Virus record (IMG/VR): IMGVR_UViG_3300027509_000001 | Coordinates: 128,001-188,518 of that record | From: a virus | Lineage: Duplodnaviria > Heunggongvirae > Uroviricota > Caudoviricetes | DNA: 60,518 nt | Direction: 5' to 3' (one strand) | Part shown: piece by piece, positions 24,075-40,014 of the stretch | Layout: each line of letters begins with the position of its first letter | Numbering within the stretch: position 1 is the stretch's first letter | Notes under the pieces: generated by a model | What the model was told of the DNA's origin: nothing | The model's input: only the letters and a program-made list of their open reading frames with translations | The model's database searches: none | Translations under genes and position numbers: made by a program

Positions 24075-24088
24075 AACTTTGATTTTTG

Positions 24089-24159
24089 TACTCCTACCAG
24101 AATTCGAATCCGGACTAAAGGCTTAGAAGGCCCATGTGCTGCCATTACACCATAGGAGC
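24089..24159 (-). tRNA. tRNA-Arg(UCU)
   Basis: cloverleaf; anticodon loop CTTCTAA. Confidence 0.85.
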
Positions 24160-24164
24160 AGATT

Positions 24165-24350
24165 TAATAATATTACTATGTTTCTGCTAGATACCAATTG
24201 GCACCTTTTGGCAATTTCTTTAATTCTTCTTTTAGGTATGAGATGAAACCAACATCTCTTGATATTTAATATACCTGCCATGATATGCAAGTTTTCAATT
24301 GAATATGGTTTACATACCAAATGTCTTGCGTTATCACAATAAAATTTCAT
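24165..24350 (-). pseudogene. small ORF, apparently degenerate (frame runs into tRNA-Arg)
   Basis: HLVC.PYS.ENLH..RCWFH; no stop before the tRNA. Confidence 0.35.
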
Positions 24351-24351
24351 G

Positions 24352-24425
24352 TACTCAATATAGGATTCGAACCTATGACCCCCTCGGTGTAAGCGAGGTG
24401 CTCTGAACCACTGAGCTAATCGAGT
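24352..24425 (-). tRNA. tRNA-Val(UAC)
   Basis: CCTCG-CTTACAC-CGAGG; TTCGAAT T-loop. Confidence 0.9.
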
Positions 24426-24498
24426 ATTATAATACTTGAATATTAATAGTTATAGATAAAATTTACTCTTTACGCTTTAATCTTAACGTATTAATTTG

Positions 24499-24571
24499 AA
24501 AGCGAGAGTGGAATCGAACCACTGTAATGAGGATTGCAATCTCATGCCTAAAGCCACTCGGCCACTCGCTC
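24499..24571 (-). tRNA. tRNA-Cys(GCA)
   Basis: loop TTGCAAT; U73; cloverleaf. Confidence 0.85.
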
Positions 24572-24576
24572 AAATT

Positions 24577-24816
24577 TTATCCGTCGTAATCTGTAAATAT
24601 TAATTTATTTCCTATAACTTTAATATCTGATAATTTAGTATGGTAAATATCATCATCTACAGTAAAATAAACTTTGTTATTTTCCACGTAATCAACTTCG
24701 GAATGAAATTGTTGACTACCACTTGTAACAGTGAATAATGCACCTGGTTTTAATTTTTTTAGAAGCGCATCGTTAGATGATTCATTTAAAGCTTCGTTCC
24801 ATATTTTCTTGTTCAT
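24577..24816 (-). CDS. small protein with MNKKIWNEA leader (putative internal head protein)
   Basis: start moved to ATG 24816 based on the N-terminal motif shared with three other ORFs. Confidence 0.6.
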   Translation of the reverse strand: MNKKIWNEALNESSNDALLKKLKPGALFTVTSGSQQFHSEVDYVENNKVYFTVDDDIYHTKLSDIKVIGNKLIFTDYDG

Positions 24817-24830
24817 ATTAGATTTCCTTT

Positions 24831-25307
24831 TTAATATATATCTTTTCTTTTCAATAAACGTTTTATATACTTTGAATGTTCTAAATTCCTCCAATTGACT
24901 AATCCAACGGTAAAGTGTGGTTTGAAATATGGTTCTCTAGATAATCCAAGTTCTGACCTAATATCATACAGAATTTCTGGATATTTATCTATAGTAAGCC
25001 ACCAATGTTCATTATCACTCTTTAATATGCTGCTAATATCAACACTAACCTTCTTATTTTTATATTTAAGCGACGTTTCTTTCCACTTAATGTCATTAGT
25101 GTATCTATCATTAATAAACGTTGTATGGGCTTTTCTTAAAGGTTGTTGAGTTATTAATTTGAATCGTTTATAAAGATACCAACGCCACATAGCATCTAGC
25201 TCAGTATTAGAAAACAATACCATAGCAGTTTTTTTCCAAGTTCCTTGTCTAGAATGTTTTTTAGTAACATTCTTTGGATCGAATATTATTTTGCCAGTTA
25301 ATAACAT
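24831..25307 (-). CDS. 2H phosphoesterase family protein
   Basis: two HxT motifs (AHTTF, PHFTV) about 70 aa apart. Confidence 0.65.
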   Translation of the reverse strand: MLLTGKIIFDPKNVTKKHSRQGTWKKTAMVLFSNTELDAMWRWYLYKRFKLITQQPLRKAHTTFINDRYTNDIKWKETSLKYKNKKVSVDISSILKSDNEHWWLTIDKYPEILYDIRSELGLSREPYFKPHFTVGLVNWRNLEHSKYIKRLLKRKDIY

Positions 25308-25311
25308 AATG

Positions 25312-25343
25312 CAAATATAATAAATACAAATGACAATTACAAA
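25312..25343 (-). promoter_or_regulatory. Bacteroidota sigmaA-type promoter
   Basis: TTTG-N20-TATATTTG. Confidence 0.7.
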
Positions 25344-25362
25344 AATAAATAACTTTATAAAG

Positions 25363-25454
25363 CAGAAGATAAGGGATTCGAACCCTTAGACCCATTTTTC
25401 AATAGATCGCTTGTTTAGCAAACAAGTGCCGCGCACCATCTCGACCGATCTTCT
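25363..25454 (-). tRNA. tRNA-Ser(GCU)
   Basis: CTTGT-TTGCTAA-ACAAG; long variable arm; G73. Confidence 0.85.
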
Positions 25455-25878
25455 ATATAGTTATATCTTTATCAATTCTGCCTTGTAAATCTTTTTCTAA
25501 TTCTAAAATAGATTGCAATGCATGTGATTCCTTCATATACCTAACGAAGAAATGTGTTACAATAAATAAAATCCCAAGTATTAGCACTCTGATTTTATAT
25601 GCCTGCACAAATAAAGCTAAAATGCCGTAACCATAACCAGCAATTGCACATAAGATGAACACGAAATTAAAATATAATAAATATTTCTTTGTAGGACTGT
25701 TATTATATTTTTTAGCAGTCTGATAGGTATGCCATGAAACTCTAGTATATTGAATAATCACACCAATTAATAATATGACCATTATAGCTATAAGAGAAAA
25801 ATCTTCATTTGCACAATGGAAAAGTGTTTGGTAAGGTTCTCCATTAGAATCAGTATATAACCATTTAATTAAATTCAT
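25453..25878 (-). CDS. three-TM membrane protein
   Basis: three hydrophobic segments. Confidence 0.6.
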   Translation of the reverse strand: MNLIKWLYTDSNGEPYQTLFHCANEDFSLIAIMVILLIGVIIQYTRVSWHTYQTAKKYNNSPTKKYLLYFNFVFILCAIAGYGYGILALFVQAYKIRVLILGILFIVTHFFVRYMKESHALQSILELEKDLQGRIDKDITI

Positions 25879-25918
25879 TAAAAATCTTTTTTAATATATA
25901 GCTTCTATACTTTAAAAG

Positions 25919-26002
25919 TACTCCCGGCGAGACTCGAACTCGCACCCCCAATTACGGAGAACAGGGCTTAAACCTGTCGTGTCTGCATTCCACCACGGAA
26001 GT
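25919..26002 (-). tRNA. tRNA-Leu(UAA)
   Basis: ACAGG-TTTAAGC-CCTGT; long variable arm; A73. Confidence 0.9.
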
Positions 26003-26003
26003 A

Positions 26004-26168
26004 TTATTTCCATTTAGTTTTTCTAAATCTCTTCCAACTTCTAATTATCTCTTTAGCAGAATAATTGCATCCAGAATGTGGTCCACATAAAAGGCAACCA
26101 CGCCTTTCGGATTTTCTTTTAAGCAACTTATAATTTCTAGAGTTAGTTGTTTTAAATGTCTCTTTCAT
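26004..26168 (-). CDS. 54-aa basic Cys/His peptide (not in ORF track)
   Basis: MKETFKTTNSRNYK..GCLLCGPHSGCN..RSWKRFRKTKWK. Confidence 0.55.
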   Translation of the reverse strand: MKETFKTTNSRNYKLLKRKSERRGCLLCGPHSGCNYSAKEIIRSWKRFRKTKWK

Positions 26169-26245
26169 AATACTTTATTTTTAAGTTAATAAACCTAATA
26201 TAAAGTACCTGTTTTCATTTTTATAAATTTTATTTTTTAAAAAAG

Positions 26246-26316
26246 AACCGAATGTAAGATTCGAACTTACACCAAAGGTTTCGAAGACCCTTACGCTGCC
26301 ATTACGCCAATTCGGT
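26246..26316 (-). tRNA. tRNA-Arg(UCG)
   Basis: AGGGT-CTTCGAA-ACCTT; cloverleaf. Confidence 0.85.
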
Positions 26317-26546
26317 ATCTATATTTGGACTAACTTCAACTCCAGCAGTAACTTGAGTAAATGAAACATTCTTTGTCCACCTTTCCCATTCATCATATGT
26401 AATTAAAATTTTAACCAAATCTGTATCTTTTTTATCCAAAGGTAAAACAGTCCAAAATACATCTGGAGATTTAAGGTTAACTACATTTTCAACTTGGTCT
26501 TGGGCAATATATACTCTAATTAAAGACTTTTTAAATTCCTTTTTAG

Positions 26547-26620
26547 TACCGCAGGTAGGGTTCGAACCTACAAATTTCAGGGTCTAAGCCTGTTGCCTAT
26601 TCCAATTCGGCTACTGTGGC
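26547..26620 (-). tRNA. tRNA-Leu(UAG) with short (5-nt) variable loop
   Basis: ACAGG-CTTAGAC-CCTGA then AATTT then T-arm. Confidence 0.8.
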
Positions 26621-26627
26621 AAATAAG

Positions 26628-26699
26628 AAGTCCCATGCAGAATCGAACTGCAACCTTCGGGATCAAAACCCGACGTACTAGCCGTTGTACCATGAGACA
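26628..26699 (-). tRNA. tRNA-Gln(UUG)
   Basis: TCGGG-TTTTGAT-CCCGA. Confidence 0.85.
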
Positions 26700-26768
26700 A
26701 TGATGAGTGGCTGTTCCCACCGCGTAACTAGAAAGTCGTGCCGCCACTCATAGGCTTTATCTTTTAAG

Positions 26769-26839
26769 TTGATTTATTAGGACTCGAACCCAAACCCTGA
26801 GAGCCAACATCTCAGATGCTACCATTACACCATAAATCA
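26769..26839 (-). tRNA. atypical tRNA, Gln-like body, loop UG-UUG-GC (G33)
   Basis: TGAGA-TGTTGGC-TCTCA; U1-A72; canonical T-arm. Confidence 0.65.
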
Positions 26840-27265
26840 ATTTGTTTTAGTGAAAGTTACATTTATTATTGTCATTTGATTACTAGCATTTGAAACTAAA
26901 TGCGGAATATCAACTGGATATACTACAGATTCACCGATAGTATATATGACATTATTAATATCATCGTACAGTTCACCTTGAATAATTGTTATCTTTTCGT
27001 CGCAATCAGGATGAACATGTTTACCAAATTTCGTATGTGGATAAAGTATGGTAATAAAGTTAATAATATTTGGATCTGTCGTTGGAGTTTTCCAGCCAAC
27101 TATTCCAGTATGAAAGGACATTATATTATTATCGCTAACACCTAACAGATCTGAAAACTTTACCACGCTGATATCGTCAATATGAAATTCATTATTACTG
27201 AATTCATTAATTAATGCTTCTGCTTTTTCTTGTGCTTTTACTAATCTATTTTTCAATCTATCCAT
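26837..27265 (-). CDS. cupin-domain protein
   Basis: HVHPDCDEKITIIQGEL..IPHLVSN. Confidence 0.75.
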   Translation of the reverse strand: MDRLKNRLVKAQEKAEALINEFSNNEFHIDDISVVKFSDLLGVSDNNIMSFHTGIVGWKTPTTDPNIINFITILYPHTKFGKHVHPDCDEKITIIQGELYDDINNVIYTIGESVVYPVDIPHLVSNASNQMTIINVTFTKTN

Positions 27266-27310
27266 TGATCTCTTTATTTAACAATAAATATACGATTGAA
27301 TTAATAAAAG

Positions 27311-27399
27311 GGTGCTAAACGGGAATTGAACCCGCAAATTAATTTCTTAATACCCGAGTCACAATCGGGCACGACTAACCAATATTCGTATCTAGCACC
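27311..27399 (-). tRNA. tRNA-His(GUG) with long variable arm
   Basis: G-1:C73; CCCGA-TTGTGAC-TCGGG; variable hairpin ATTAA-GAAA-TTAAT. Confidence 0.85.
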
Positions 27400-27425
27400 A
27401 TGTAAACGCTGTTTCATCTTCTGCT

Positions 27426-27773
27426 TTAATAATCTCGTCCCGAAGTTTCTGTCTCAAATTGTCCTTGCTCTTTACCAGCGTGATTAGAACAATACAACTT
27501 TTTAGTTTTAGTATCTACAAAAATTACATGCTTCCAAGAATTGTATAACGAATGCACTGATAAGGCAGTTCCTTTTCTCAATGTTTGAGTCTTGCCAAAC
27601 ACATCAATTGCCTTAAAATCATTATCAACGTAATACATAGATTCACTTCTACCGTAAAATAATTTGTCAGCTTCTGATTGAGTTTTCACTGGCAATACAT
27701 TTTTGGTATTATCATTTGGATACCTACTTTCTTTTAATTCATTAATTGCTTCATTCCAAATTTTCTTATTCAT
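27426..27773 (-). CDS. small protein with MNKKIWNEA leader (putative internal head protein)
   Basis: shared N-terminal motif. Confidence 0.6.
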   Translation of the reverse strand: MNKKIWNEAINELKESRYPNDNTKNVLPVKTQSEADKLFYGRSESMYYVDNDFKAIDVFGKTQTLRKGTALSVHSLYNSWKHVIFVDTKTKKLYCSNHAGKEQGQFETETSGRDY

Positions 27774-27794
27774 ATTCCCAATCCTAATTATTTG

Positions 27795-27866
27795 CGATCA
27801 TGGAGAATTACGATATCCCGACCCGCGATTTAACAAACCGCCGCTCTGCCTCTGAGCTACATGATC
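27795..27866 (-). tRNA. tRNA-Asn(GUU), atypical T-loop ATCGTAA
   Basis: GCGGT-TTGTTAA-ATCGC; G73. Confidence 0.8.
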
Positions 27867-27880
27867 TTTTGAATTATTTT

Positions 27881-28108
27881 TTAAAATGATATTTTATTTT
27901 GTTTAACTAAGTTTGAAATAGTACCATTGACGTGTATACTATTATCATTACTAGAAGCAGTAATATAATTGGTTTTTTTATCAAGTTTAGTAATTTTTCC
28001 TGACACATAAATGCCTCCATGTTTATGAATTTTAACCAATTGTCCAACTTTTAAATTCTGTTCGGTTAACCTTTCCTGAATTACTTCGTTCCAAATTCTA
28101 TTGTTCAT
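27881..28108 (-). CDS. small protein with MNNRIWNEV leader (putative internal head protein)
   Basis: shared N-terminal motif; SH3-like LKVGQLVKI. Confidence 0.6.
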   Translation of the reverse strand: MNNRIWNEVIQERLTEQNLKVGQLVKIHKHGGIYVSGKITKLDKKTNYITASSNDNSIHVNGTISNLVKQNKISF

Positions 28109-28266
28109 TTTAATTTCCGTTTCTTTTAAATTTCAATTATATTAATGTTAACGAGGTTGACCCTTACTGTTAAAAAACACATTCATATAATATAATCTAT
28201 CATCTAATATTCACGACTTGTGGTAGTCGCAACCATAAAGAATATTAAATTGTCTTTAAATATTTT

Positions 28267-28340
28267 TGGTGGTACCTCGGGACTCGAACCCTGACCTTTC
28301 GGGCTTCAACCGAACGCTCTGCCAATTAAGCTAAGGCACC
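28267..28340 (-). tRNA. tRNA-Phe(GAA), CCA encoded
   Basis: TTCGG-TTGAAGC-CCGAA; ends ACCA. Confidence 0.85.
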
Positions 28341-28567
28341 ATTTAATATGTCCATTTGTTATTTGTACGATATGATTTCTTTAAAGCATCTAATACTAAT
28401 TGTATTTCATATAAGCATTCATTTCTTCCACCACCAACTAATGTAAGGTTGTAAATTCACTCTGTATCGCTTCTTAAAAATCATCTGAAACTTTTGATTT
28501 AATTAAATCTCCCTCGCCCATTTGCCTAGAATCATTAATATCCAATTCATAGTTATTTGCTTTTTAG

Positions 28568-28640
28568 TGGTACCGATCGGTAACGATCCGATTACTTCCT
28601 GTTCTTCAAGCAGGCACTCTACCATTTGAGCTACGGTACC
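28568..28640 (-). tRNA. second tRNA-Phe(GAA), atypical T-loop ATCGTTA
   Basis: CCTGC-TTGAAGA-ACAGG; perfect acceptor stem. Confidence 0.75.
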
Positions 28641-28646
28641 ATTTTG

Positions 28647-28718
28647 CACTTTCAATAGGACTCGAACCCATACCTGCGGGTTTGGAAGCCGCGGTGCTGC
28701 CAATTACACCATGAAAGC
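28647..28718 (-). tRNA. tRNA-Trp(CCA)
   Basis: GCGGC-TTCCAAA-CCCGC; G73. Confidence 0.8.
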
Positions 28719-28745
28719 ATTTTAAAAGTACGAAAAACAACGTCG

Positions 28746-28819
28746 TACCCCCGGTTGGACTCGAACCAACTACCCCACCGTTAAAAGCGGCGTGCTCCAT
28801 CCCGTCAAGCTGCGGAGGC
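28746..28819 (-). tRNA. tRNA-Lys(UUU)
   Basis: CGCCG-CTTTTAA-CGGTG. Confidence 0.9.
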
Positions 28820-28831
28820 GTTTTATTTTAG

Positions 28832-28917
28832 CGGTCATAACGGGACTCGAACCCGCATACAATTTTTCAACTGATGCCACCGTGACAGGGTGGTCGCTTT
28901 CCATTCGCTTCATGACC
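28832..28917 (-). tRNA. tRNA-Asp(GUC) with long variable arm and reduced D-stem
   Basis: CCACC-CTGTCAC-GGTGG; variable hairpin CAGTT-GAAA-AATTG; G73. Confidence 0.8.
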
Positions 28918-28928
28918 TAAATTAAAAG

Positions 28929-29007
28929 TACTACTGGAGGGATTTGAACCCACATTTTCAACCCAGTTACCTTACTCCTGTGTATCAGACAGGGTGGATA
29001 CAGTAGT
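28929..29007 (-). tRNA. D-armless/rearranged tRNA-Ile(GAU)
   Basis: perfect 7-bp acceptor stem; CCTGT-CTGATAC-ACAGG; 7-nt D region; 23-nt variable region; T-arm. Confidence 0.7.
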
Positions 29008-29021
29008 ATGTTAATATATAG

Positions 29022-29110
29022 CGGAAGAAGAGGGATTCCAACCCCCACTACAAGACTAGTTGTAGGCTACGGTTTTCAAGACCGACACAATAGCGTTCTG
29101 TCATTCTTCC
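29022..29110 (-). tRNA. tRNA-Ser(UGA)
   Basis: TCGGT-CTTGAAA-ACCGT; long variable arm; G73. Confidence 0.85.
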
Positions 29111-29339
29111 AAAAATTAAGTGACTCTTCCTTTAGTTCATCTCTAGAATTTTTAAATTCTAATATTTCACGAGTGTGATTTTCGTTGCCATACTTATTAA
29201 GTGAATATCTAAGTCTTCTACCTGAACCTAAATAACCATCGTCTAAATTATTAGTAGAATGCATTCCAATATAATACTTTCCATTTAAATTGTTCGTCGT
29301 TTTATATATGAAGTGATATTTCTTTGCTTTTCTTGCCAT
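29076..29339 (-). pseudogene. truncated GIY-YIG (Seg-like) homing endonuclease
   Basis: FIYKTTNNLNGKYYIGMHST..YLGSG..REILEF; frame runs into tRNA-Ser and lacks the rest of the domain. Confidence 0.75.
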
Positions 29340-29409
29340 ATTAATAATATATAGTTTGAAAAGTACATAAAACAACGAAAGAAATAAAGGAATCGAACAT
29401 TTCCAATTG

Positions 29410-29483
29410 TCGGGGTGATTGGAATCGAACCAACTAACCCATGGCTCCAGACCACGTGCGCTTAAAACCTTAGTCACACCCCG
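29410..29483 (-). tRNA. tRNA-Pro(UGG), atypical C33/A37
   Basis: CGGGGTG acceptor; CGTGG-TCTGGAG-CCATG. Confidence 0.8.
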
Positions 29484-29489
29484 ATTTTT

Positions 29490-29563
29490 GGCAACATGTC
29501 GGGATCGAACCGACTCTATTCCTGGTTGGAAGCCAGGTGCACCACCATTTATGCGTATGTTGC
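29490..29563 (-). tRNA. tRNA-Gly(UCC)
   Basis: CCTGG-CTTCCAA-CCAGG. Confidence 0.85.
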
Positions 29564-29576
29564 AAAATACCCGCCT

Positions 29577-29587
29577 TGTCAAAGAGC
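29577..29587 (-). promoter_or_regulatory. boxA-like antitermination element GCTCTTTGACA
   Basis: close match to rrn boxA; lies in a tRNA spacer. Confidence 0.55.
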
Positions 29588-29668
29588 TTTCATGTATGAA
29601 TTATAATACATTAAATATTTTATTAAGCCGAAACTTGAAAATAATGTATTATAATTCATGCATTTTTG

Positions 29669-29741
29669 TGGAGCCACCGATGAACGATATCGGATCTGCT
29701 GGGTGCAAGCCAACTATTTTAGCCAATTAAACTATGGCCCC
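29669..29741 (-). tRNA. tRNA-Ala(UGC), atypical T-loop ATCGTTC
   Basis: G3:U70; GTTGG-CTTGCAC-CCAGC. Confidence 0.85.
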
Positions 29742-29802
29742 GTAAGTAAAATATTTAGGAAACTACTAATAACCAGTATTAATCTAAATATTTTACTAAA
29801 TA

Positions 29803-29887
29803 GTGGAAATAGATGGAATTGAACCAACTCAGCCGTTAGGCAGATGTTTTACAGACACCTCCGGCTCTCCAACTCCGGCGTATTTCC
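29803..29887 (-). tRNA. tRNA-Tyr(GUA)
   Basis: GGTGT-CTGTAAA-ACATC; long variable arm. Confidence 0.9.
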
Positions 29888-29919
29888 ATTTTTCAAAATT
29901 TAGCTTATCTTTTTAAACT

Positions 29920-29953
29920 AAAAAAGCCCCTTAAAAATTAAATTAAGAGGCTT
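29920..29953 (-). terminator. intrinsic terminator (attenuator) upstream of the tRNA array
   Basis: AAGCCTCTTAA/TTAAGGGGCTT stem ending in U6, about 32 nt before tRNA-Tyr. Confidence 0.8.
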
Positions 29954-29978
29954 TAAATAAATTCTTTTAAAATTTACA

Positions 29979-30083
29979 TTAAACCTCTATTTGATCCGAC
30001 GCTTTATAACCAAAGATTACAGGAGACCAACTTAACGGTTGCAGATTACGCCCATGTCTTTGATTGTTATGTAAATTTTTCAT
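29979..30083 (-). CDS. 34-aa leader peptide MKNLHNNQRHGRNLQPLSWSPVIFGYKASDQIEV (putative attenuator)
   Basis: sits between promoter and terminator; last codons and stop form the 5' arm of an antiterminator. Confidence 0.7.
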   Translation of the reverse strand: MKNLHNNQRHGRNLQPLSWSPVIFGYKASDQIEV

Positions 30084-30144
30084 ATTGTTTTGTTTAAATC
30101 TAAGTACAAACTAATAATATATAGTATTAGTTATTTAATTTATA

Positions 30145-30176
30145 CAAATATAAGTAAAGTTTTTCACTTGTGCAAA
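30145..30176 (-). promoter_or_regulatory. Bacteroidota sigmaA-type promoter of the tRNA operon
   Basis: TTTG-N20-TATATTTG. Confidence 0.75.
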
Positions 30177-30212
30177 TATTTTGATAAATTTATTTTAAAA
30201 TATTTATCCAAT

Positions 30213-30470
30213 TCATTTTATTATTTTATTAATATACCAATATTTTATTTTATTTTTCAATTGTTCAAGTTGCGATGCTGTTTTACGCATAACGTCAGAC
30301 GCTTTCTTGATAATCTTGGAATTATCGTTTTCGCTGCCTTCATCCGCCTCTAACAACTTTTCCATTGCAATTCTTACGTCTTCGTAACGTTTTGACAATG
30401 AATATGTAATTTTAGAATCTGTTGATTCTTTTAATTTGACTTTTGCTTCTTTCCAAATTTGCTTATTCAT
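30213..30470 (-). CDS. small protein with MNKQIWKEA leader (putative internal head protein)
   Basis: shared N-terminal motif. Confidence 0.6.
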   Translation of the reverse strand: MNKQIWKEAKVKLKESTDSKITYSLSKRYEDVRIAMEKLLEADEGSENDNSKIIKKASDVMRKTASQLEQLKNKIKYWYINKIIK

Positions 30471-30679
30471 TATTCTGATTTAGTTTTTATTTGAGATTCT
30501 ACATATTGAGTATATTTTGCTTTAATCCAATCCCAATTTCTTGTCATGAATACACCAAGTGCAAACGTTGAAATAAAAGACTTGCCTAGTATAAATGCTA
30601 CAACGAATATTGCACCCCATGTAAAAGCCGCTAGTCCAGTACTAGTAAAAATTGATTTGATTTTGTTAAACCATTCCAT
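30470..30679 (-). CDS. small two-TM membrane protein
   Basis: hydrophobic segments. Confidence 0.55.
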   Translation of the reverse strand: MEWFNKIKSIFTSTGLAAFTWGAIFVVAFILGKSFISTFALGVFMTRNWDWIKAKYTQYVESQIKTKSE

Positions 30680-30819
30680 AATATTAATTTCCTTTTTTGA
30701 TTTTTTGATACCGCCTATTATTGTTTATAATATATAATCCCATCAATGCAATTATTTTCATTTGAATTCCAATAATAAAAAGTAAATCCATAGTTACTAT
30801 TAAATAGTCAATAAATTAA

Positions 30820-31137
30820 TTAAACCGATATAAAGTCAGCGGATTTAATTGCATCCTCTAACCATTCTTCTTTATCTGATATATCTTCATTAGTACCAAA
30901 ATATATCATAATATCTTTTAAATGATCCCAATCTAAAGATTTTAAAATCGCCATTGCCATCTCTTTGTCTTTCATTACTATGTCAATTTCGTCATACCAA
31001 TCAGATGATCCTATTTCTATTTCATTTCTAGAACATATTAATTCTGCTCTAATTTCTGCTAAAGACCTTAATGGTATATGGTATATCGTTCCGTCATTTG
31101 GAAATTCAATCTGTATTGTATTTGTATTTATCGTCAT
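30820..31137 (-). CDS. hypothetical acidic protein
   Basis: ORF; likely start at MTINTN. Confidence 0.55.
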   Translation of the reverse strand: MTINTNTIQIEFPNDGTIYHIPLRSLAEIRAELICSRNEIEIGSSDWYDEIDIVMKDKEMAMAILKSLDWDHLKDIMIYFGTNEDISDKEEWLEDAIKSADFISV

Positions 31138-31147
31138 AATGTCATCT

Positions 31148-31678
31148 CTATTTATTATAATTAACAACAGTGACGTCAATTAAGTGGAATTCTTCTGAAA
31201 TAATTTGCTTGAGTATTTCTTTGTCTCCGCCTGCTAGTCCACATCCTATCCATGGCATAATTAATTTTGTATTAGGATGTAATTTTTCAATTTTCCTAAA
31301 GCAAAGTCTAATAGCCTCATAATCTACTGGTATATTATATGGGTAAGTAGATAATGTATTATCGTTAACTTTCTTCCTAGGAAATAATTGCGTATAACAG
31401 TTATAGACCTTTATTGTCGGATTATCTAATGTAAATGGTAAGTTTGTAAGCGAATGATTCCAAATCCCGTTAGATCGCATGAAATGCCTTCCATCGATAG
31501 TACCTAATTTATTTATATCTGACTTTCGTTCGAAGGGAAATTGGTTAGTTTGAAATAATTTGACAAATTGAAGAGCAATTCCCTTCTTTTGTTTACAAAC
31601 ACAATTACACCCCTGAATAATAATGTCATATTCATGGATTAAAATTTCATTAAATATATCTCCTTCAATGATTTTCAT
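31148..31678 (-). CDS. macrodomain ADP-ribose-processing protein
   Basis: IIEGDIF; QGCNC..GIA; PWIGCGLAGGD. Confidence 0.85.
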   Translation of the reverse strand: MKIIEGDIFNEILIHEYDIIIQGCNCVCKQKKGIALQFVKLFQTNQFPFERKSDINKLGTIDGRHFMRSNGIWNHSLTNLPFTLDNPTIKVYNCYTQLFPRKKVNDNTLSTYPYNIPVDYEAIRLCFRKIEKLHPNTKLIMPWIGCGLAGGDKEILKQIISEEFHLIDVTVVNYNK

Positions 31679-31681
31679 TTT

Positions 31682-32068
31682 TTAATTGTATTTCATTACT
31701 TTCAATTGATCTTCGCTTGGACTCCAATTCCCTAATAAATAATCTATAAGCCAATCATGTAAATTGTCGTAAGGTGGCATATTAACATTCATGCCAATAA
31801 AATTATTAGTTCTAAACGATATTCCTAAATGCCGAAAATTAACAGACCATATTTCATTTGTTCTGGAGTCATAACTTGAATCTGTATATTTTATACTATA
31901 ACCATGGGCAAGAACAGATTCGTTAATATTAGGGTATTGTAATTTTAATGATCTTTGTGCATTCTCTCCTCTCCAGGCTGCAAATTTGTGAATCCTTTTA
32001 ACCATTAATAATATGTTAGAATGTTGGAGTGAACTTAGTCCCTTAATAGTTTTATTTTCATTTCGCAT
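31682..32068 (-). CDS. hypothetical protein
   Basis: ORF track. Confidence 0.5.
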   Translation of the reverse strand: MRNENKTIKGLSSLQHSNILLMVKRIHKFAAWRGENAQRSLKLQYPNINESVLAHGYSIKYTDSSYDSRTNEIWSVNFRHLGISFRTNNFIGMNVNMPPYDNLHDWLIDYLLGNWSPSEDQLKVMKYN

Positions 32069-32548
32069 TTAAAAAATTGATTATCCGATAGGCATAATTC
32101 CTTCCCAAGCCAAATTGCCAATCAGTGTTAAAAAAATTATTCCTTTGACTAAAAAGCATATCAGAATCGTCATCTATAATTACATATGATCTGAATTTAT
32201 GAGGTTCATAATTATTGTCTTTTAACCATTTATATATTTCAAGGCCTCTTGGTGTTTTAACGTTGGGAACGTAAATAGATTCGGTTTTTCCTATTACTTC
32301 TCCGGTAATGTTAACTCGCTTAAATAAATCTATTAATTCAGATATACTTCTAGTCTTTCTCCATGATGAACTTATAACAATTTTAGCCTCAGTCTTATCG
32401 GTAATTTTATTTAAATTAGTAACTAATTCTGGGTCGAATTGTGCTTCTTCATATTCTTCAACTGATTCCGATCTCATTCTTTCGACTTTATTGGACTTGT
32501 ATTTAACACTCCATCTATGTCTAGAAATATTAACTTGTTATTCTCCAT
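32058..32548 (-). pseudogene. HAD phosphatase of Swiss-Army-knife RNA-repair type, with one frameshift
   Basis: ATG 32548 gives IFLDIDGVLN; IVISSSWR, RG.EI..W and YVIIDD are in the adjacent frame (shift near 32495). Confidence 0.7.
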
Positions 32549-33617
32549 ATATAGATTTTTGAATTAAATCGAAAAACCCAATCCTAGCCTCAGAACCTAT
32601 TCTAGATTTAACATCTTCCCAATCTAAAGATAATTCACTTAATAAACCAGATTCTTCATCAAATACATCTTTTTGTACCCATTGTATTACATCTCTAGTC
32701 TTTTCTTTACCAGGAACTACATTCTCAAATAATTGATGAATAGCTTGATCTACTCGATTGATAATGTCTATAGAAGAAACGAACTGATTAATATTAGCCA
32801 ACTTTACGGGACCTAGTTTGACATCTTTTTTAGGTCCTTTATTTTTAGATACCTTTTTATGCTTTTCTCCTTTGGTTTTAAAGCTAATTCGATTTCTTTC
32901 TCCTTTATAGTTGGTTATAAAACAATTCCAAACAATTCCTTCTCCCAAACCAATAATGCCAAAATGTTCGGCGACGGGGCATTTATCTTCAACCTTTGCA
33001 ATTATCTTATTAAAATACTCCCTAGCCTCAATTGGATTGTTGAGATCACATTTAAATTTAAAAGTTTTAAATTGGTAAATATTCCATATTCTTTCATTAT
33101 CAATTGAAATATATTTCCAGACTTCAGGATCTATCCAATATGCAGCCCCTTCTTCCGGGGTTACTTTTATTCCAAATATAAAAAACATTTTATGGGGCAA
33201 TTGAGATATTGCCACTTTTTTCTGTACGCCATTTCCACACCATTCTCCATATATTGAATATGTTGCGTTTGCATCAAACATTTCATTGGATTCAACAGCC
33301 ACTTCAAATAAAAACCGAGTCATTGCCTGCTTAGATTCGGGAATATTCATAAATGCATGAAATCCAAAATGACCTGTTATTGTACCCTCTTTTGAAGCAG
33401 TTGTTCTCTTCTGTGTCCAATATTCATCGCCTTTAAAGCAAACTGCCGCATGTGTACCATGAAGCTTGACAGTACCTTCTACGTCTAAAGTAGGTAATGG
33501 TGTCAATTCAAATATTGGGTTATTATCTTTATCTAAGCCCTTAAACTCTTTTTTCTGTTTAAAGTCCTTATAAAAATTATCAAATGATTTAATTTTTGGA
33601 AATGCTATAAATTTCAT
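32538..33617 (-). CDS. RNA ligase, Rnl2-like
   Basis: TVKLHGT motif I; YGEWCG; FFIFGI; GEGIVW; FKTKG. Confidence 0.8.
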   Translation of the reverse strand: MKFIAFPKIKSFDNFYKDFKQKKEFKGLDKDNNPIFELTPLPTLDVEGTVKLHGTHAAVCFKGDEYWTQKRTTASKEGTITGHFGFHAFMNIPESKQAMTRFLFEVAVESNEMFDANATYSIYGEWCGNGVQKKVAISQLPHKMFFIFGIKVTPEEGAAYWIDPEVWKYISIDNERIWNIYQFKTFKFKCDLNNPIEAREYFNKIIAKVEDKCPVAEHFGIIGLGEGIVWNCFITNYKGERNRISFKTKGEKHKKVSKNKGPKKDVKLGPVKLANINQFVSSIDIINRVDQAIHQLFENVVPGKEKTRDVIQWVQKDVFDEESGLLSELSLDWEDVKSRIGSEARIGFFDLIQKSIYGE

Positions 33618-33631
33618 ATGAAGTTGTTTTT

Positions 33632-34189
33632 TTATAATTTAATTAATTCATTTAATTTTCCCCACATATATGTTTCAAATGGATGTGGATTTTTAACAGT
33701 TAAATTATTCTTAAAACCTAAAAATTCCTTTTTGTATTTATTAAACATGGAACCTCCTTCCATACGAGAGTGGGCCATATTTGCATATCTGTCTATTAAT
33801 TTTGCAATTCGACTTAATGTGTTAGATTTAATTCTTTCATAATTTTTCCTTTCATCTCTATTCTTGCCAGGATCATCTGAAATACAAAATACGCCATCGG
33901 CTACAATTTCTCCAAAAAATTTCCTAATGTCATTATAAGACATTCTACCATCTTCCAATGCATCATGTAAAATTATTACACATCTTAGTTCTTCTAGTCC
34001 CGCTCGTTCTTTTGGAAAAATATACTCAATTGTTTGTATTTCATCGAAAAAATAATCAACCATTTGTTCATATATTGCGTCGCAATCTTTCAGATGTTTG
34101 ATATACGTAAATGGGCCATAATACTGACCAACATGTTGTTTCTCAGCCATTAGCCAAGCCATTTCTACTTTATTTGTCAATTTTAGCAT
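33632..34189 (-). CDS. HD-domain small alarmone (p)ppGpp hydrolase-like protein
   Basis: AEKQH.GQ..YIKHL; LHDALED; KLIDR..N. Confidence 0.75.
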   Translation of the reverse strand: MLKLTNKVEMAWLMAEKQHVGQYYGPFTYIKHLKDCDAIYEQMVDYFFDEIQTIEYIFPKERAGLEELRCVIILHDALEDGRMSYNDIRKFFGEIVADGVFCISDDPGKNRDERKNYERIKSNTLSRIAKLIDRYANMAHSRMEGGSMFNKYKKEFLGFKNNLTVKNPHPFETYMWGKLNELIKL

Positions 34190-34775
34190 CTTTAAGTTTT
34201 TTTAGACGTTTAACTTCAGCAGCAGATCTGAATAATAATTCGTTTAAATATTCTGCTTGATATCTACAATCATCAATAGCTATATGTTTAGTTCCTTTGA
34301 ATTCAACTGTTGGCTCACCTTTTAATTGTTTCAATGTTCTAATGTCGCTAGCTAAACGATAATGATATGGCATTTTATAACCAAGCTGATGAGTAATATT
34401 TCTTAAAATTGGGTCGTCAAATGATCCATGCTGCCATATGGCACGTATTTTATAATCTTTCCTAAGTTCAGTTAGCCACAATTCAAATTCAGTAATTACA
34501 TCTGCTAAATTCTTACTGTTTTTTTGATTAAATGCATCATCTCTGGCTTCTTGAGCGCATTCTTTTGATAACCACCATAATATTGTTGAATATGTTGGTT
34601 TAAAATCATAACGTTGTAAATCTTTTACATTAATGTTCAGCGTAAAATCGTCTACAATTTGGAATTCTTTTTTTGCCAACCATGCAACCGCAGCAATTTG
34701 AACTGGAGGAGCTTGAGTGGTATTTCCTAAAGTCTCGAAATCAAATGTTACGTAAATATCTTTTTTCTTTTTCAT
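34170..34775 (-). CDS. DEDDh 3'-5' exo(ribo)nuclease
   Basis: FDFETLG; SFDDPIL; HIAIDD. Confidence 0.8.
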   Translation of the reverse strand: MKKKKDIYVTFDFETLGNTTQAPPVQIAAVAWLAKKEFQIVDDFTLNINVKDLQRYDFKPTYSTILWWLSKECAQEARDDAFNQKNSKNLADVITEFELWLTELRKDYKIRAIWQHGSFDDPILRNITHQLGYKMPYHYRLASDIRTLKQLKGEPTVEFKGTKHIAIDDCRYQAEYLNELLFRSAAEVKRLKKLKDAKIDK

Positions 34776-34777
34776 AT

Positions 34778-35512
34778 TTAACTTGTTTGTGCATCATGAT
34801 GATCTGACATTAACAACCTTTCTTTTCTAAGCAACATCATCTTTTTTATTTCATCAACATGAAACATTGAATATTCACCAAATAATCTAAATTTATTATC
34901 GACACCCACATCAGTAGTTCGGTGTAAATTATAAAATTTGTTAACAGGATGCAATCCCCCTTCGTTAATATTTTCTAAACCATTATGACTGTGTCCATGT
35001 AATTGAATGGCGCCATGATGACTTTTGTTCCAGATCCTTTCTGCATAATGAGATAACGTAGAACGAATTCCGCCAATTCTAAAAAACTGTTTTAAGGTAA
35101 CTTCGGTAAATAAATCTTGCAAATAAATAGCATTTGGAAATCTAACATGTACATCTTCAATTAAGTCCAATGGAATTGGTCTATTTTTCATGATTAGTTC
35201 GTCATGATTTCCTAGGCTTAATATAATATTATTACAATTGATTCTTAATCTGGACTTTATGATATTTTCTATTCCGCCAAACGACCAGTCTCCGCCATGG
35301 CGTATTAAATCATTTTGTTTGGCTTGAGAATTAATATTTGCTATTAATTCGTCGGTCATAATATACTGATTTAAATAATCCCGGCCGCGAAATGATTTTC
35401 CGAGATCCCTTCGATCCTTTGGGTCATGTTCATGGCCTCCGGGCCATCTAGATGATCCTTTGCAAATATTTTTATGATAAAAATGTGTATCGCTTGTTAC
35501 CCAAGTATTCAT
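34778..35512 (-). CDS. calcineurin-like metallophosphoesterase
   Basis: SDTHFYH; GDW; GNHD; HGHSH. Confidence 0.85.
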   Translation of the reverse strand: MNTWVTSDTHFYHKNICKGSSRWPGGHEHDPKDRRDLGKSFRGRDYLNQYIMTDELIANINSQAKQNDLIRHGGDWSFGGIENIIKSRLRINCNNIILSLGNHDELIMKNRPIPLDLIEDVHVRFPNAIYLQDLFTEVTLKQFFRIGGIRSTLSHYAERIWNKSHHGAIQLHGHSHNGLENINEGGLHPVNKFYNLHRTTDVGVDNKFRLFGEYSMFHVDEIKKMMLLRKERLLMSDHHDAQTS

Positions 35513-35566
35513 TGCTTTAATTTTAATTAAAACAAATATATAACTAAATTATCACAATATCAAATA

Positions 35567-36082
35567 TTACACACTTAATTTCTGAATAGATTTATGATTT
35601 TTTAATGCGTCGTCAATATATTGTGGTTCAATCTCAATAGATTTATTTCTTAACGACTCGACATATTCAGCGCCTTTTAATGTACATAAATTATATAATG
35701 TTCCAGCTGGAATTAAATATATGTGATTATGTTCGAACTCTTGTTGACTGGTTATATTCATTAAATCCCCACGTAATACGGTAATATATGTATCATAATC
35801 ATTCATAGTTAATAAGTTACTAGAATATTTCGATTCAATGGAAATTCTATGATATATAAGTTCTTCTTCTGATGGAAGATACATCCTTGTAACCGTTTTA
35901 TTTCCTATTTTAAATGATGAATTATAAGGTTGTAAATTAAAATCTCTAAATTTATTAACAATTACTTTGTCCCTAGAATTGGGATCAAGGTTATACATAG
36001 CTATTTCTGAGTCTGCCCAAGTTGCATATGTTTTAAAAAAATTGTGTTTAAGGTCTTTTAGTAATTGATCATTTAGTGTCAT
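35567..36082 (-). CDS. hypothetical protein, degenerate cupin-like
   Basis: ITVLRGDL..LIPAGT. Confidence 0.5.
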   Translation of the reverse strand: MTLNDQLLKDLKHNFFKTYATWADSEIAMYNLDPNSRDKVIVNKFRDFNLQPYNSSFKIGNKTVTRMYLPSEEELIYHRISIESKYSSNLLTMNDYDTYITVLRGDLMNITSQQEFEHNHIYLIPAGTLYNLCTLKGAEYVESLRNKSIEIEPQYIDDALKNHKSIQKLSV

Positions 36083-36476
36083 TAGATGTGTCTTTAGATA
36101 ACTGTGAATTAATAGTGCCTTCCAACGAATTAATTCGAACTTGTAATTCAGAATTCCTTGTCGTTAATATTAAATTCTTCTTATTAGATTCTTCTAATTT
36201 AATTGACAAATCTCCAAATTTTTGAGAAAACTCTTTACGTTGAGATATTAGCTTTTCGCTAAGCTCTTCGAATGATTTATTTAACCTTTCAATAGTTTCT
36301 ATGGAACTATGGCTAATACGTTTAACCGTATCATGTTCTGTTCCTGTTACAACTACTTCTTCTTTTCTTTTTCTAAGTTTGTTAAAGGCAAATGTGGACA
36401 TTCCTGTTACAATAGTAGTCACTAACGTTGTTACCAACGGGTAATTTTTCATTAACCATATTAGACTTTCCATCAT
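36069..36476 (-). CDS. membrane-anchored coiled-coil protein (holin-like topology)
   Basis: one N-terminal TM helix plus coiled coil. Confidence 0.5.
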   Translation of the reverse strand: MMESLIWLMKNYPLVTTLVTTIVTGMSTFAFNKLRKRKEEVVVTGTEHDTVKRISHSSIETIERLNKSFEELSEKLISQRKEFSQKFGDLSIKLEESNKKNLILTTRNSELQVRINSLEGTINSQLSKDTSNDTK

Positions 36477-36537
36477 TGAGAATTATTCCATTATCATGTT
36501 TATGTATATACATAGCTACGTCGTCTAGAAACCAAAT

Positions 36538-37536
36538 TTAAAATGACCCATAATAAACCTGGAAACAATCCAGTCCCATATTCCTCCAATGATCAATCAT
36601 CATGTCACGGTCATCAAGAACAAAGCCTACTCTATATTGGTCTTTAATATGCCTATCAAACATTTCCTGTTTTACAATTGTATCTTTCCTAGTGTCTCCA
36701 GGTTTCCTCATTGAAAGTAAGTGGTAATCAATGTGATTGTCACCGAGCCATTTCTTTGTAGCTTCCAAGCCCCCATTATCAGAGTTTCTTCCAGAAAATA
36801 AAAATATTTTATGATCTTGTAATTCACTATAGGCAGCTAAGACACTTGCTACAGATTCATTGACTTTATCAGTTCCACAAGCTGCTCCATCGTATGGACT
36901 TCTTCCATCCATTAAAGATAATGTACCATCTAAGTCACATATTATGCACCATGGTAAATCCGACTTTCCTGTATTATACCTATTGTTTTTAATTGTTCGT
37001 GGATCAATATTATTATTTGGTTGGTTGTAAATCTTAGGATTCTCTGGCCACCATGATAATGAATTAAACCCCATGTATCTTCCAGACTTATATCCATTTT
37101 GTCTAAGTCCGTTTGGTAAATTTTTATACTCTGCAAATTGTTTTTCTATAAGTTCTTTGCCAACTGATCTGGTTCTTTGTTGATCTCTCTGTATACAAGT
37201 CTTCTTATCCGTGTCGAATAATAATACTTTTATTGGAAGGTTATATACTTTCCATTTATTAATATGTGATGCCCTTAGATTAGTGTTGTCGACAATTACA
37301 GATTCGCCTGAATTTATAGCAGTAGACATAATCTTATCAAATATAACAGTAATCTCCTTCTCAGTTTGATATATGTTGCCAGTATAATATTTATGAACCG
37401 TTTCTTCTGTGTAACCAAAATACATACATCTAAGAGAATCCCTTGAAATAATTCTTGCAGTTGGTAATTTTGATATGTAAGTAGATTTACCAGAACCGCT
37501 TGGTCCGGACAAAACTATTATTTCTTGTTGTTTCAT
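36538..37536 (-). CDS. pseT: polynucleotide 5'-kinase/3'-phosphatase
   Basis: GPSGSGKST P-loop; SRD; DNTNL; HAD CDLDGT, SGR, DDR. Confidence 0.9.
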   Translation of the reverse strand: MKQQEIIVLSGPSGSGKSTYISKLPTARIISRDSLRCMYFGYTEETVHKYYTGNIYQTEKEITVIFDKIMSTAINSGESVIVDNTNLRASHINKWKVYNLPIKVLLFDTDKKTCIQRDQQRTRSVGKELIEKQFAEYKNLPNGLRQNGYKSGRYMGFNSLSWWPENPKIYNQPNNNIDPRTIKNNRYNTGKSDLPWCIICDLDGTLSLMDGRSPYDGAACGTDKVNESVASVLAAYSELQDHKIFLFSGRNSDNGGLEATKKWLGDNHIDYHLLSMRKPGDTRKDTIVKQEMFDRHIKDQYRVGFVLDDRDMMIDHWRNMGLDCFQVYYGSF

Positions 37537-38678
37537 AATATATTTATTCTTTCTGGTTTAATATTTTTTATTGCAAGTTGCCTAATATCTTCTGGGACTT
37601 GAGCTCCTGCCCCTTTAAAGTCTCTTAGTTTATATAATACGCCTGCGCTGATATTTGCTTTTCCTGATAATAAAGAGTTAACTCTTAATGCATATTGTTT
37701 ATTAAAATCAGACGCATTGGAATCTAAATTCCAAATAATTTCATCTCGATGTCTAATATGCTTCATTATAAAGTCTTTATATGACTTCTTTAAGATGTTT
37801 AGATAATCTGTTATTTTATTATAGCATTCATCTGGAACCGCTTCTAGAAAATCATTAATAGTGTTGTCTTTATAACATTCCCAAATTTTACAAGAATTAA
37901 TATCAGATAATAGCCAATGCAATTTGATATAATTTTCAAATTTAATTTTAACACGTTTACCATCTGGCCAGCAAATTACATACCCTTCTTCATTTTGAAT
38001 GTCTTTCGATTTTAAGTCTAAAAGAAATTCATTTAGGTCTTTGAATTCCTTGTCAACGAGCAATGGCAATGGCTTAACTACATGTTCAAATGAATCTGTT
38101 AACTTAGTTGATTTTAAGGCTATATCCCTACCTGTTTGATTATTGGTAATGCCAAGTAGTACTGCCTTAGATTCTCCTTTGTAATCTAATACTATCCGAT
38201 TTTCCTTGAAAATTAATTCAAATAAATAAGTATAATTTGGAGTTCTAGGAATTTTATTAAAATTGAAATTATCATTTGCATATTCTTTAAACCAAATAGC
38301 TTGTTCTGATCTAAACGATCCTCTAGATGCAAATACCCATTCGTTGTTATACATGAACATAATTCCTAGGCTACCATCTTCTTTGGTGTAAATGTCTAAT
38401 TCATTGTGATGGACTTTCCAATTAATTGGTTGTACTTTCTGAATTAATGGATCAGTATATTCTTCCCAATTAAAAAATTTAGGAAATGATTTAGCAATAA
38501 TATTACCACTGTCGTCTGTTACTAAACCTCTACAATTAATTGTAATGTCATCCCAAGATTTATCGTATGCAGTTAACCTACTATAATTCCATATAGTTAA
38601 TGGTAAAGAATCGTGTCGGCTTGAAATTAATTTCTTATCGATTTCATATTGACGTAATAAATTTATATCTAGTTTCAT
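37533..38678 (-). CDS. rnlA: RNA ligase 1 (T4 RnlA-like)
   Basis: CRGL; KFFN; KEDGS; SRGSF; EGYV; KIK. Confidence 0.9.
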   Translation of the reverse strand: MKLDINLLRQYEIDKKLISSRHDSLPLTIWNYSRLTAYDKSWDDITINCRGLVTDDSGNIIAKSFPKFFNWEEYTDPLIQKVQPINWKVHHNELDIYTKEDGSLGIMFMYNNEWVFASRGSFRSEQAIWFKEYANDNFNFNKIPRTPNYTYLFELIFKENRIVLDYKGESKAVLLGITNNQTGRDIALKSTKLTDSFEHVVKPLPLLVDKEFKDLNEFLLDLKSKDIQNEEGYVICWPDGKRVKIKFENYIKLHWLLSDINSCKIWECYKDNTINDFLEAVPDECYNKITDYLNILKKSYKDFIMKHIRHRDEIIWNLDSNASDFNKQYALRVNSLLSGKANISAGVLYKLRDFKGAGAQVPEDIRQLAIKNIKPERINIL

Positions 38679-38692
38679 ATTTTAATCAATTT

Positions 38693-38947
38693 TTAAAATA
38701 TTTGATTGTTTATTGAATTCTGCCACCACTCGTTAAATGGAATTATTTCGTAAGTAAATTCATCACTGCCAGCTGGTAAGGTTAATCCCTTATAAGTTAT
38801 TTCCCATTGACCATCTTCCATATTTTCAATAATTAATTCTAAGAAATACGCCCACTCGTCAATATCGTTGGTTTCAATTGGTTGAGAATGATAATCATGA
38901 TAAGTACATCCATCTCCGTCTCCCCAAAATAAAATATATTTTTTCAT
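38693..38947 (-). CDS. hypothetical acidic protein
   Basis: ORF track. Confidence 0.55.
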   Translation of the reverse strand: MKKYILFWGDGDGCTYHDYHSQPIETNDIDEWAYFLELIIENMEDGQWEITYKGLTLPAGSDEFTYEIIPFNEWWQNSINNQIF

Positions 38948-39690: not shown

Positions 39691-39713
39691 ATCTAACTTT
39701 TTAATTACAATGT

Positions 39714-39975
39714 AAATATAATGGAAATTAATGAAAGTATCAAGTTTTAGCTATGCTAATTTAAAATTCGAAAGCCATTTTCTTAGTTTGGCATTGTTCA
39801 TTCCACCTAAAGATTCAATCCATTTAGGAGTAACTTCTTGAACAAATATATGATCATCCTCAGAATTTTTAAACCAGTCATTAAAATCATAATTTTGTCT
39901 CTTCTGCAATCCTTTGTCTATATTCCATATGTTAACCTTTACCCATACTACAAATATAATGGAAATTAATGAAAG
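39714..39975. repeat. duplicated 24-bp promoter segment (39714-39737, 39952-39975) flanking a start-less ORF remnant
   Basis: aaatataatggaaattaatgaaag occurs twice. Confidence 0.8.
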
Positions 39976-39978
39976 ATC

Positions 39979-40010
39979 AAAAAAAAACTCACGTATTTCT
40001 ACATGAGTTT
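39979..40010 (-). terminator. intrinsic terminator after the tmRNA coding piece
   Basis: AAACTCATGTA-GAAA-TACGTGAGTTT followed by a U-run. Confidence 0.85.
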
Positions 40011-40014
40011 AAAA

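Follow-up and report, generated by a model that had tools for sequence, protein, structure and literature searches.

Leader-peptide attenuators are known for trp and his, for pheM-pheST and, in multivalent form, for thr and ilvGMEDA. T-box riboswitches also couple tRNA charging to termination; they bind tRNA directly, and they may occur before tRNA genes in clostridia, although the literature searched here did not confirm this. In amino-acid operon attenuators a short ORF precedes an antiterminator that competes with an intrinsic terminator, and stalling on hungry codons leads to readthrough, as laid out in the cited part of the work on E. coli pheL-pheA (PMC3082878). The locus analysed here shares this design and lies at the head of a phage tRNA array. 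Judging from comparative analysis and a folding model, it is most probably a ribosome-coupled transcription attenuator that would admit RNA polymerase to the array when ribosomes slow on codons read by the array. It differs from amino-acid operon attenuators in its output, which would be tRNA genes, i.e. the sensed molecules themselves, and in its leader, since those leaders carry runs of one to three codon classes whereas up to 20 classes are listed here.

The nearest described elements in layout are the predicted leader-peptide attenuators of ilvE, hisG and pheA in Flavobacterium psychrophilum (PMC9723704, in part). These belong to the same phylum, lack a Shine-Dalgarno sequence and have leaders (19–27 codons there) that end shortly before a similar terminator, but they head enzyme genes whereas the phage element heads tRNA genes. 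The portion of that paper's supplement considered here has four rows marked as 5' of tRNA, none with a leader-peptide comment. The nearest in purpose is the tRNA array of Anabaena, the trn operon (L-array) with its repressor TrcR (PMC8421152, PMC10272220), which, in the portions cited, is a long array kept quiet and induced under translational stress; in contrast to the proposed phage switch, it is controlled by a DNA-binding repressor acting at initiation, with no codon-level matching. The strings 'attenuat', 'leader' and 'terminator' had 0 occurrences in the portion of PMC8421152 searched, as had 'tRNA gene' and 'phage' in that of PMC2965389. A single uORF, toiL of E. coli topAI-yjhQ, answers stalls at different positions (PMC12121999, in part), but it acts through ribosome-binding-site access and Rho termination of a toxin gene and senses antibiotics. 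With respect to phage tRNAs, the tRNA-Lys of T5 counters PARIS by replacing the cleaved host tRNA, and the abstract of that report names no regulation of the phage tRNA (PMC11464382). The step from cleavage to stalling is supported by a case in Mycobacterium, where a toxin that cleaves tRNA makes ribosomes stall on attenuator ORFs for Cys (PMC13096801, in part). A first-pass annotation of the present DNA knew of no such switch described for phage tRNA arrays, and no paper on leader-peptide control of tRNA genes was found in the literature searched, most subscription papers and the supplements of others lying outside its scope.

The proposed attenuator locus and the tRNA clusters

The window, i.e. 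the whole stretch of 60,518 nucleotides analysed, corresponds to C1:128001-188518 in a viral record that is complete (188,518 bp) and bears terminal repeats. For window positions 27000–33000, one marine DNA run and no RNA run was listed. This marine phage encodes a Gp23-type capsid protein, the closest named relatives of which are in Microcystis phage Mel-JY01 (54.8%) and the Flavobacterium phages immuto (50.9%). Because promoters of the form TTTG-N-TAnnTTTG precede its genes, we infer that its host belongs to the Bacteroidota. The features of the locus, in window coordinates, are as follows.

30145–30176, minus strand: Bacteroidota primary-sigma promoter by pattern match, TTTG-N20-TATATTTG, with a TTTG −33 box and a TAnnTTTG −7 box
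30116–30123, minus strand: TATATATT motif in the leader UTR, possibly a second promoter of phage late type
29979–30083, minus strand: leader ORF of 34 codons, putatively translated, with an A-rich start context and without a Shine-Dalgarno sequence
29994–30080, minus strand: predicted sensing zone, codons 2 to about 28–30, with 18–19 of the 20 array boxes and no Thr, Glu, Met or Ile-ATA codon
29946–29988, minus strand: antiterminator, the 5' arm of which (29988–29981, last codons and stop) pairs with 29953–29946
29977–29957, minus strand: inner 9-bp hairpin of the antiterminator
29920–29954, minus strand: intrinsic terminator, a 12-bp stem (29954–29923) followed by U6
29887–29803, minus strand: tRNA-Tyr, first tRNA gene of the array
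24088–29887, minus strand: array of 22 tRNA genes with interspersed ORFs
29576–29663, minus strand: between tRNA-Ala and tRNA-Gly, long hairpin with a boxA-like motif after it
25312–25343, minus strand: internal primary-sigma promoter, upstream of ORF 25307 and of tRNA-Cys, Val and Arg(UCU)

The promoter and the leader ORF, both named in the first-pass annotation, were recovered by pattern matching and from the ORF list, and its placing of a U6 terminator before tRNA-Tyr, the first of 22 tRNAs, was borne out by folding, ARAGORN and Rfam. The −33/−7 consensus used is that described for Bacteroidota (PMC7366714, PMC9723704, each in part), and transcription would start near 30138. The short ORF sits between promoter and tRNA genes, as the attenuator class requires. 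Its peptide matched no PHROGs family, and no close orthologue was found in the surveys run. Neither T-box nor other cis-regulatory models of Rfam matched the locus, only tRNAs passing; the Rfam leader families were rejected (L10_leader, 23.9 bits against a cut-off of 44). In six relatives (L158, L174, L207, L238, L259 and L281), the −7 box ends 4–6 nt before the leader ATG, which implies leaderless transcripts.

Half of the minus-strand copies of TATATATT (20 of 40) are intergenic, as against 17% of that strand being non-coding by the ORF mask. Intergenic copies lie at window positions 30123, 29353, 29020, 26513 and 25900, and the motif is also found before the capsid region (C1 107321). Recurring in this way, it is a candidate for a late promoter of the phage, in which a late sigma factor gene is present at 17129–17947.

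The array reads Tyr, Ala, Gly, Pro, Ser, Ile, Asp, Lys, Trp, Phe (two genes) and Asn, followed by His, Gln (two genes), Leu, Arg, Leu, Ser, Cys, Val and Arg. Nineteen genes were called by ARAGORN, and Pro, Asn and the gene at 28929–29007 by Rfam, the Ile-GAT anticodon of the last being assigned by eye. This atypical tRNA-Ile, the second tRNA-Gln (26768–26839) and tRNA-His (27310–27398) have low model scores or odd arms, and their function is uncertain. Promoter-like motifs occur inside the array at 29353, 29020, 27292, 26513, 25900 and 25319, and from these the distal tRNAs may be transcribed in a way that bypasses the attenuator. The earlier claim that the attenuator switches on the array is therefore perhaps overstated as to reach, although gating itself is supported. 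The hairpin and boxA-like motif at 29576–29663 may be an rRNA-type antitermination signal. BoxA-like motifs lie near the start of both tRNA clusters of the phage (in the second, near C1 40852), and use of host rRNA antitermination is possible. As a shared part of such loci the motif was rejected, being present within 400 nt in only 2 of the 46 arrays surveyed below (among the matches listed). The second cluster lies outside the window:

C1 ~34,600–40,830, minus strand: second RNA cluster, starting with tRNA-Thr and tRNA-Glu and including a long-armed Met(CAT)-like gene

A promoter-like and a boxA-like motif were found at its head, and no terminator hairpin was found there. About eight tRNA-like RNAs of this cluster have intact acceptor and T arms with shortened, enlarged or odd anticodon arms, and several exceed the Rfam cut-off; they are possibly decoys or decayed tRNAs. 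A 22-codon ORF rich in Pro, Val, Ala, Lys and Thr (C1 40716–40648) lies between tRNA-Thr and tRNA-Glu, with no terminator listed after it.

Leader codons and competing RNA folds

Twenty decoding boxes were defined from the tRNAs of the array itself. The leader covers 19 of them, Cys being missing, a coverage that none of 3554 windows of 33 codons from real phage genes attained (P 3.4e-4 when simulated from codon usage, and about 4e-3 with the uniform, shuffled and short-ORF nulls). Under strict wobble 18 boxes are covered, because tRNA-Arg(UCG) reads CGT only with an unmodified U34. The count of 19 agrees with the first-pass statement that every isoacceptor class of the array except Cys has a leader codon. 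The explanation given there for the exception, that tRNA-Cys lies behind an internal promoter, is weak, because this promoter also precedes tRNA-Val and tRNA-Arg(UCU), both of which are represented in the leader. Codons 2–30 contain all 19 boxes and zero non-array codons; 0 of 3611 windows reach 19, and the joint probability of this coverage with no non-array codon is ≤2.5e-5 under both simulated nulls. The codons that the array cannot read, Ile-ATA at 32 and Glu at 33, both lie past the predicted switch point. Thr and internal Met had been reported absent from both leader and array, which holds within the array of the window and the sensing zone, but a tRNA-Thr gene and a Met(CAT)-like gene are present in the second cluster.

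Two other properties to which importance had been attached were rejected as signals. The "highly diverse" leader does encode 18 amino acids if the start Met is counted (17 internal), but this is not significant (P 0.12–0.22), and the use of GC-ending codons, taken as a class, is ordinary (9 of 33, P 0.31), although individual codons are rare in the genome (CTG 2%, CCG 6% and CGT 7% of their synonyms). The leader has no tandem run of one control codon, with 26 different codons in 33, whereas relatives do have runs. Since most codon boxes occur once or twice, the delay caused by one missing tRNA may be short.

In fold regions that were picked after being seen, the terminator (−15.1 kcal/mol, z −3.6) was equalled by 1 of 200 shuffles and the antiterminator (−13.6 kcal/mol, z −4.4) by none of 200; in a stricter test of the arm of the window against its shuffled upstream region, p was 0.04 only. 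The two folds are mutually exclusive, as had been expected, both using the terminator 5' arm; the alternative hairpin proposed to sequester this arm thus exists, but with 17 bp in the MFE structure and not about 19. Since the end of the leader ORF overlaps the antiterminator, the position of the ribosome is predicted to select the fold. This was modelled on the nascent RNA, folded as far as the terminator loop while the ribosome footprint was masked, at two assumed footprint sizes. The probability of the antiterminator was about 0.85 when the ribosome was absent or had its A site at codons 2–27/28, and 0 with the A site from codon 30/31 on. No pause/protector (1:2) hairpin, by which amino-acid operon attenuators terminate when untranslated, was identified on the nascent RNA in this model and, since the antiterminator forms on untranslated nascent RNA, an untranslated leader is predicted to read through. 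On the full-length RNA at equilibrium the terminator was favoured at every ribosome position, so the switch would rest on kinetics and on transcription-translation coupling. A long-range helix was seen only in the full-length fold.

Occurrence in viral and cellular genomes

All surveys rest on one terminator motif. Viral loci were picked by this motif followed by a tRNA T-loop only, in two scans that gave at least 213 matches, the first scan covering 11 of 64 parts of the viral set. Among the matches listed, 158 loci were kept after removal of duplicates and of those with <120 nt upstream, comprising 46 arrays (≥3 tRNAs), 52 loci with one or two tRNAs, 28 truncated loci and 32 without a called tRNA. 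An ATG ORF of 15–60 codons ending 15–40 nt before the terminator was taken as a leader. Among the matches listed, leaders were found in 39 of the 46 arrays versus 6 of the 52 lone-tRNA (1–2) loci (p 7e-14), and shifted control windows gave 4, 2 and 2 of the 46 arrays. By scan, the values for arrays and lone tRNAs were 23/30 versus 6/36 (among the matches listed) and 16/16 versus 0/16, with a distance window that was set on the first scan and narrowed after the second had been seen; the earlier, wider window gives 2/16 for the lone tRNAs in the second scan. Four of the 7 arrays without an ATG leader have one with a GTG start (three confirmed, one by eye), and the remaining three are Asn-first trios, which we take to resemble lambdoid late tRNAs.

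Grouped by similarity of their peptides and not on a tree, the 39 leaders form 28 families. Over these families the proportion of leader codons matching the downstream cluster was 0.474 versus 0.280 when permuted, and the amino acid of the first tRNA was present in the leader in 27 of 28 (0/20,000 permutations in each case); leader codons thus track array content, a test that the first-pass annotation had asked for. The matched codons are most frequent 10–22 codons ahead of the stop and become sparser close to it, in keeping with the predicted geometry. For example, leaders rich in Ser and Arg precede Ser and Arg tRNAs, Gln-rich leaders precede Gln tRNAs, and one with Thr, Asp, Val, Gly, Met, Cys and Trp precedes exactly those tRNAs. 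In all 16 cases in which an array has both boxes of Leu, Ser or Arg, both are found in its leader (12–14 expected, P 0.008–0.07). Leader diversity did not vary significantly with array size (rho 0.31, p 0.11).

The arms of the two hairpins covary, another comparison asked for there, and the leaders stand at a fixed distance before array-heading terminators. Upstream sequence pairs at −10.97 kcal/mol with the locus's own terminator arm versus −7.66 with swapped arms (0/50,000), and no such effect was found in lone-tRNA loci. Pairing was better than that of a locus's own shuffles in 17 of 28 families versus 1 of 52 lone-tRNA loci, and the arm starts 1–37 nt before the end of the stop codon in 21 of the 22 elements with a folded arm. 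These statistics include five of the 28 family representatives, which show no antiterminator pairing in the MFE, and L181, whose leader resembles a chance ORF. In the Trp family, the members of which were selected for a Trp-first cluster, a frame of 19–22 codons is kept in 10 of 10 despite ATG/GTG and TGA/TAA swaps, with an invariant Trp codon.

When loci were picked on the hairpin arms alone, 8 of 17 distinct viral matches with complementary arms preceded tRNAs, all 8 with leaders, as against 0 of 61 matches with mismatched arms; in metagenomes, 5 of 39 arm matches preceded tRNAs, all with leaders. In three metagenome contigs (L590, L603 and L604) leader ORFs with Trp runs, accompanied by this hairpin motif, head an enzyme gene and resemble classical attenuators. 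A sample based on the capsid (22 of 80 loci, 21 of them searched, plus 3 named records) contained 9 records with tRNAs. One of these, G020, has a dense main array with tRNAs for all 20 amino acids, headed by a 52-codon leader that itself contains all 20 (P 0.016), with antiterminator and terminator present. No leader was found, in the stretches examined, in the other eight, which have 1–3 or scattered tRNAs: Immuto 2-6A (3 tRNAs), Mel-JY01 (1), G012 and W03 (scattered) and four records with 1–3; for W03, which has 28 such genes, five stretches were covered, and for six loci the first tRNA only. Other all-codon leaders are those of L328 (20/20, P 0.003), L070 and L023 (19), whereas L581 lacks Asp and Val, and L589 lacks Tyr, Trp and Cys, of their own arrays.

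In cellular genomes, where the search covered 12 of 64 parts of the set and 110 of at least 120 rows were kept, leaders were found, among the matches listed, in 7 of 9 arrays versus 0 of 41 lone-tRNA loci, and codon matching between leader and cluster was 0.40 versus 0.27 (p 0.0012). Six of these loci are Bacteroidota by title (L359, L368, L369, L376, L415 and L425), with flanking genes that look cellular by eye. The Cytophagales isolate Xanthocytophaga flavus (L415/L619) has one cluster with separate Phe and Leu leaders, and two relatives in its family show similar ORFs. L621 and L622 are likewise Bacteroidota tRNA clusters headed by codon-matched leaders, of which there are sometimes two per cluster in this set. 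The presence of such clusters on Bacteroidota contigs indicates that the element is neither confined to phages nor purely a means of anti-defence, and favours a general feedback on tRNA supply.

Proposed function, alternatives and genomic setting

Taken together, the comparisons point to a real, recurrent attenuator of known mechanism with a new target, tRNA genes. They support the core of the first-pass proposal, that a translated leader overlapping an antiterminator gates the tRNA genes, and the fold model suggests the polarity. A ribosome keeping pace and reaching about codon 30 would mask the 5' arm of the antiterminator; the terminator would then fold and stop transcription near 29920. 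If the ribosome were held up anywhere in codons 2 to about 29, or were missing, the antiterminator would stay free and the tRNAs would be transcribed. New tRNAs would then speed up decoding of the leader and close the switch, a negative feedback. The trigger would be any fall in usable tRNA, whether through turnover brought on by infection, cleavage by anticodon nucleases, lack of charging or a general slowing. It is likely that the phage makes more tRNA when ribosomes decode slowly, and there is good reason to regard the circuit as a feedback on tRNA supply that is matched by codon. The first block (Tyr, Ala, Gly and Pro) is probably the most tightly controlled.

A real switch of this kind could also sense the global speed of translation or its uncoupling from transcription (antibiotics, host shut-off, ribosome damage), with the leader as a generic test track. 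In the fold model a delay at any codon from 2 to 28, or no ribosome, gives the same antiterminated state; uORFs for generic translation stress exist, toiL being one (PMC12121999, in part), and the cyanobacterial tRNA array is induced by ribosome antibiotics (PMC8421152, in part). When a leader lists all codons, these two readings coincide to a large extent. We nevertheless consider this unlikely, as leader content follows the particular tRNAs downstream, both Leu, Ser and Arg boxes are used wherever the array has them, and the leader of the window has no Thr, Glu or Met in its sensing zone.

It is very improbable that the hairpin is an ordinary terminator of the upstream genes, with the ORF and the alternative hairpin present by chance and the tRNAs arising from leakage or internal promoters. 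The genes upstream of the leader do lie on the same strand as the array, short ORFs are frequent, the array itself contains several promoter-like motifs and the terminator wins at equilibrium, but there is a consensus promoter upstream of the ORF and none between the terminator and tRNA-Tyr, the box coverage has P values of 3e-4 to 4e-3, and other loci repeat the layout with constant spacing, arms that covary and frames that are conserved. Still less credible is a leader sensing amino-acid starvation that was captured before tRNA genes without benefit, or that raises tRNA under starvation. The layout is that of the predicted F. psychrophilum attenuators (PMC9723704, in part), Trp-run leaders before enzyme genes surfaced in the hairpin-arm scan, and uncharged tRNA would stall the ribosome too; however, the matching of leaders to tRNA sets across 28 families argues for selection on tRNA output, and extra tRNA would be no remedy for a missing amino acid.

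Returning to codon-matched feedback, we lean towards a widespread and unrecognised circuit in which the leader of a tRNA operon lists the operon's own tRNAs, so that each operon gauges the working level of those it encodes, be it in Bacteroidota-type phages, in other viruses or on some Bacteroidota chromosomes. As the list here covers the whole array, it would serve as an alarm against nearly every specificity of host tRNA destruction, coupled to tRNAs that replace those lost and standing beside an RNA ligase/kinase repair kit. A role against anticodon nucleases is one possible use of the switch. A codon-matched attenuator would imply that the tRNAs are made on demand, which bears on why phages carry tRNA arrays and when they use them. 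Its leader would name the tRNAs that each phage watches and could serve as a reporter for tRNA loss in infection or anticodon-nuclease attack. Leader-peptide attenuation would reach beyond enzyme genes to tRNA genes, and a direct feedback loop would be closed. The presence of this design in the cultured X. flavus makes it testable without the uncultured phage.

The repair genes lie 1–9 kb upstream of the attenuator:

31148–38678 of the window: RNA-repair genes, encoding two RNA ligases, a polynucleotide kinase, a phosphoesterase, a phosphohydrolase and a phosphatase-family protein

Relatives of RNA ligase 2 were found at 39 loci (24–37% identical), which were scanned for tRNAs. No viral relatives were found for the 152-aa ORF after the array. 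In blastn of 28000–31700 against named phages, the matches were to tRNA and homing-endonuclease fragments only; a homing-endonuclease-like ORF fragment at 29076–29582, behind tRNA-Pro and with its end overlapping tRNA-Ser, appears truncated by this search. Four small ORFs in or beside the array (24577–24818, 27426–27773, 27881–28108 and 30213–30470) have a similar N-terminus (Met-Asn-Lys/Asn ... Ile-Trp), which suggests a repeated cassette.
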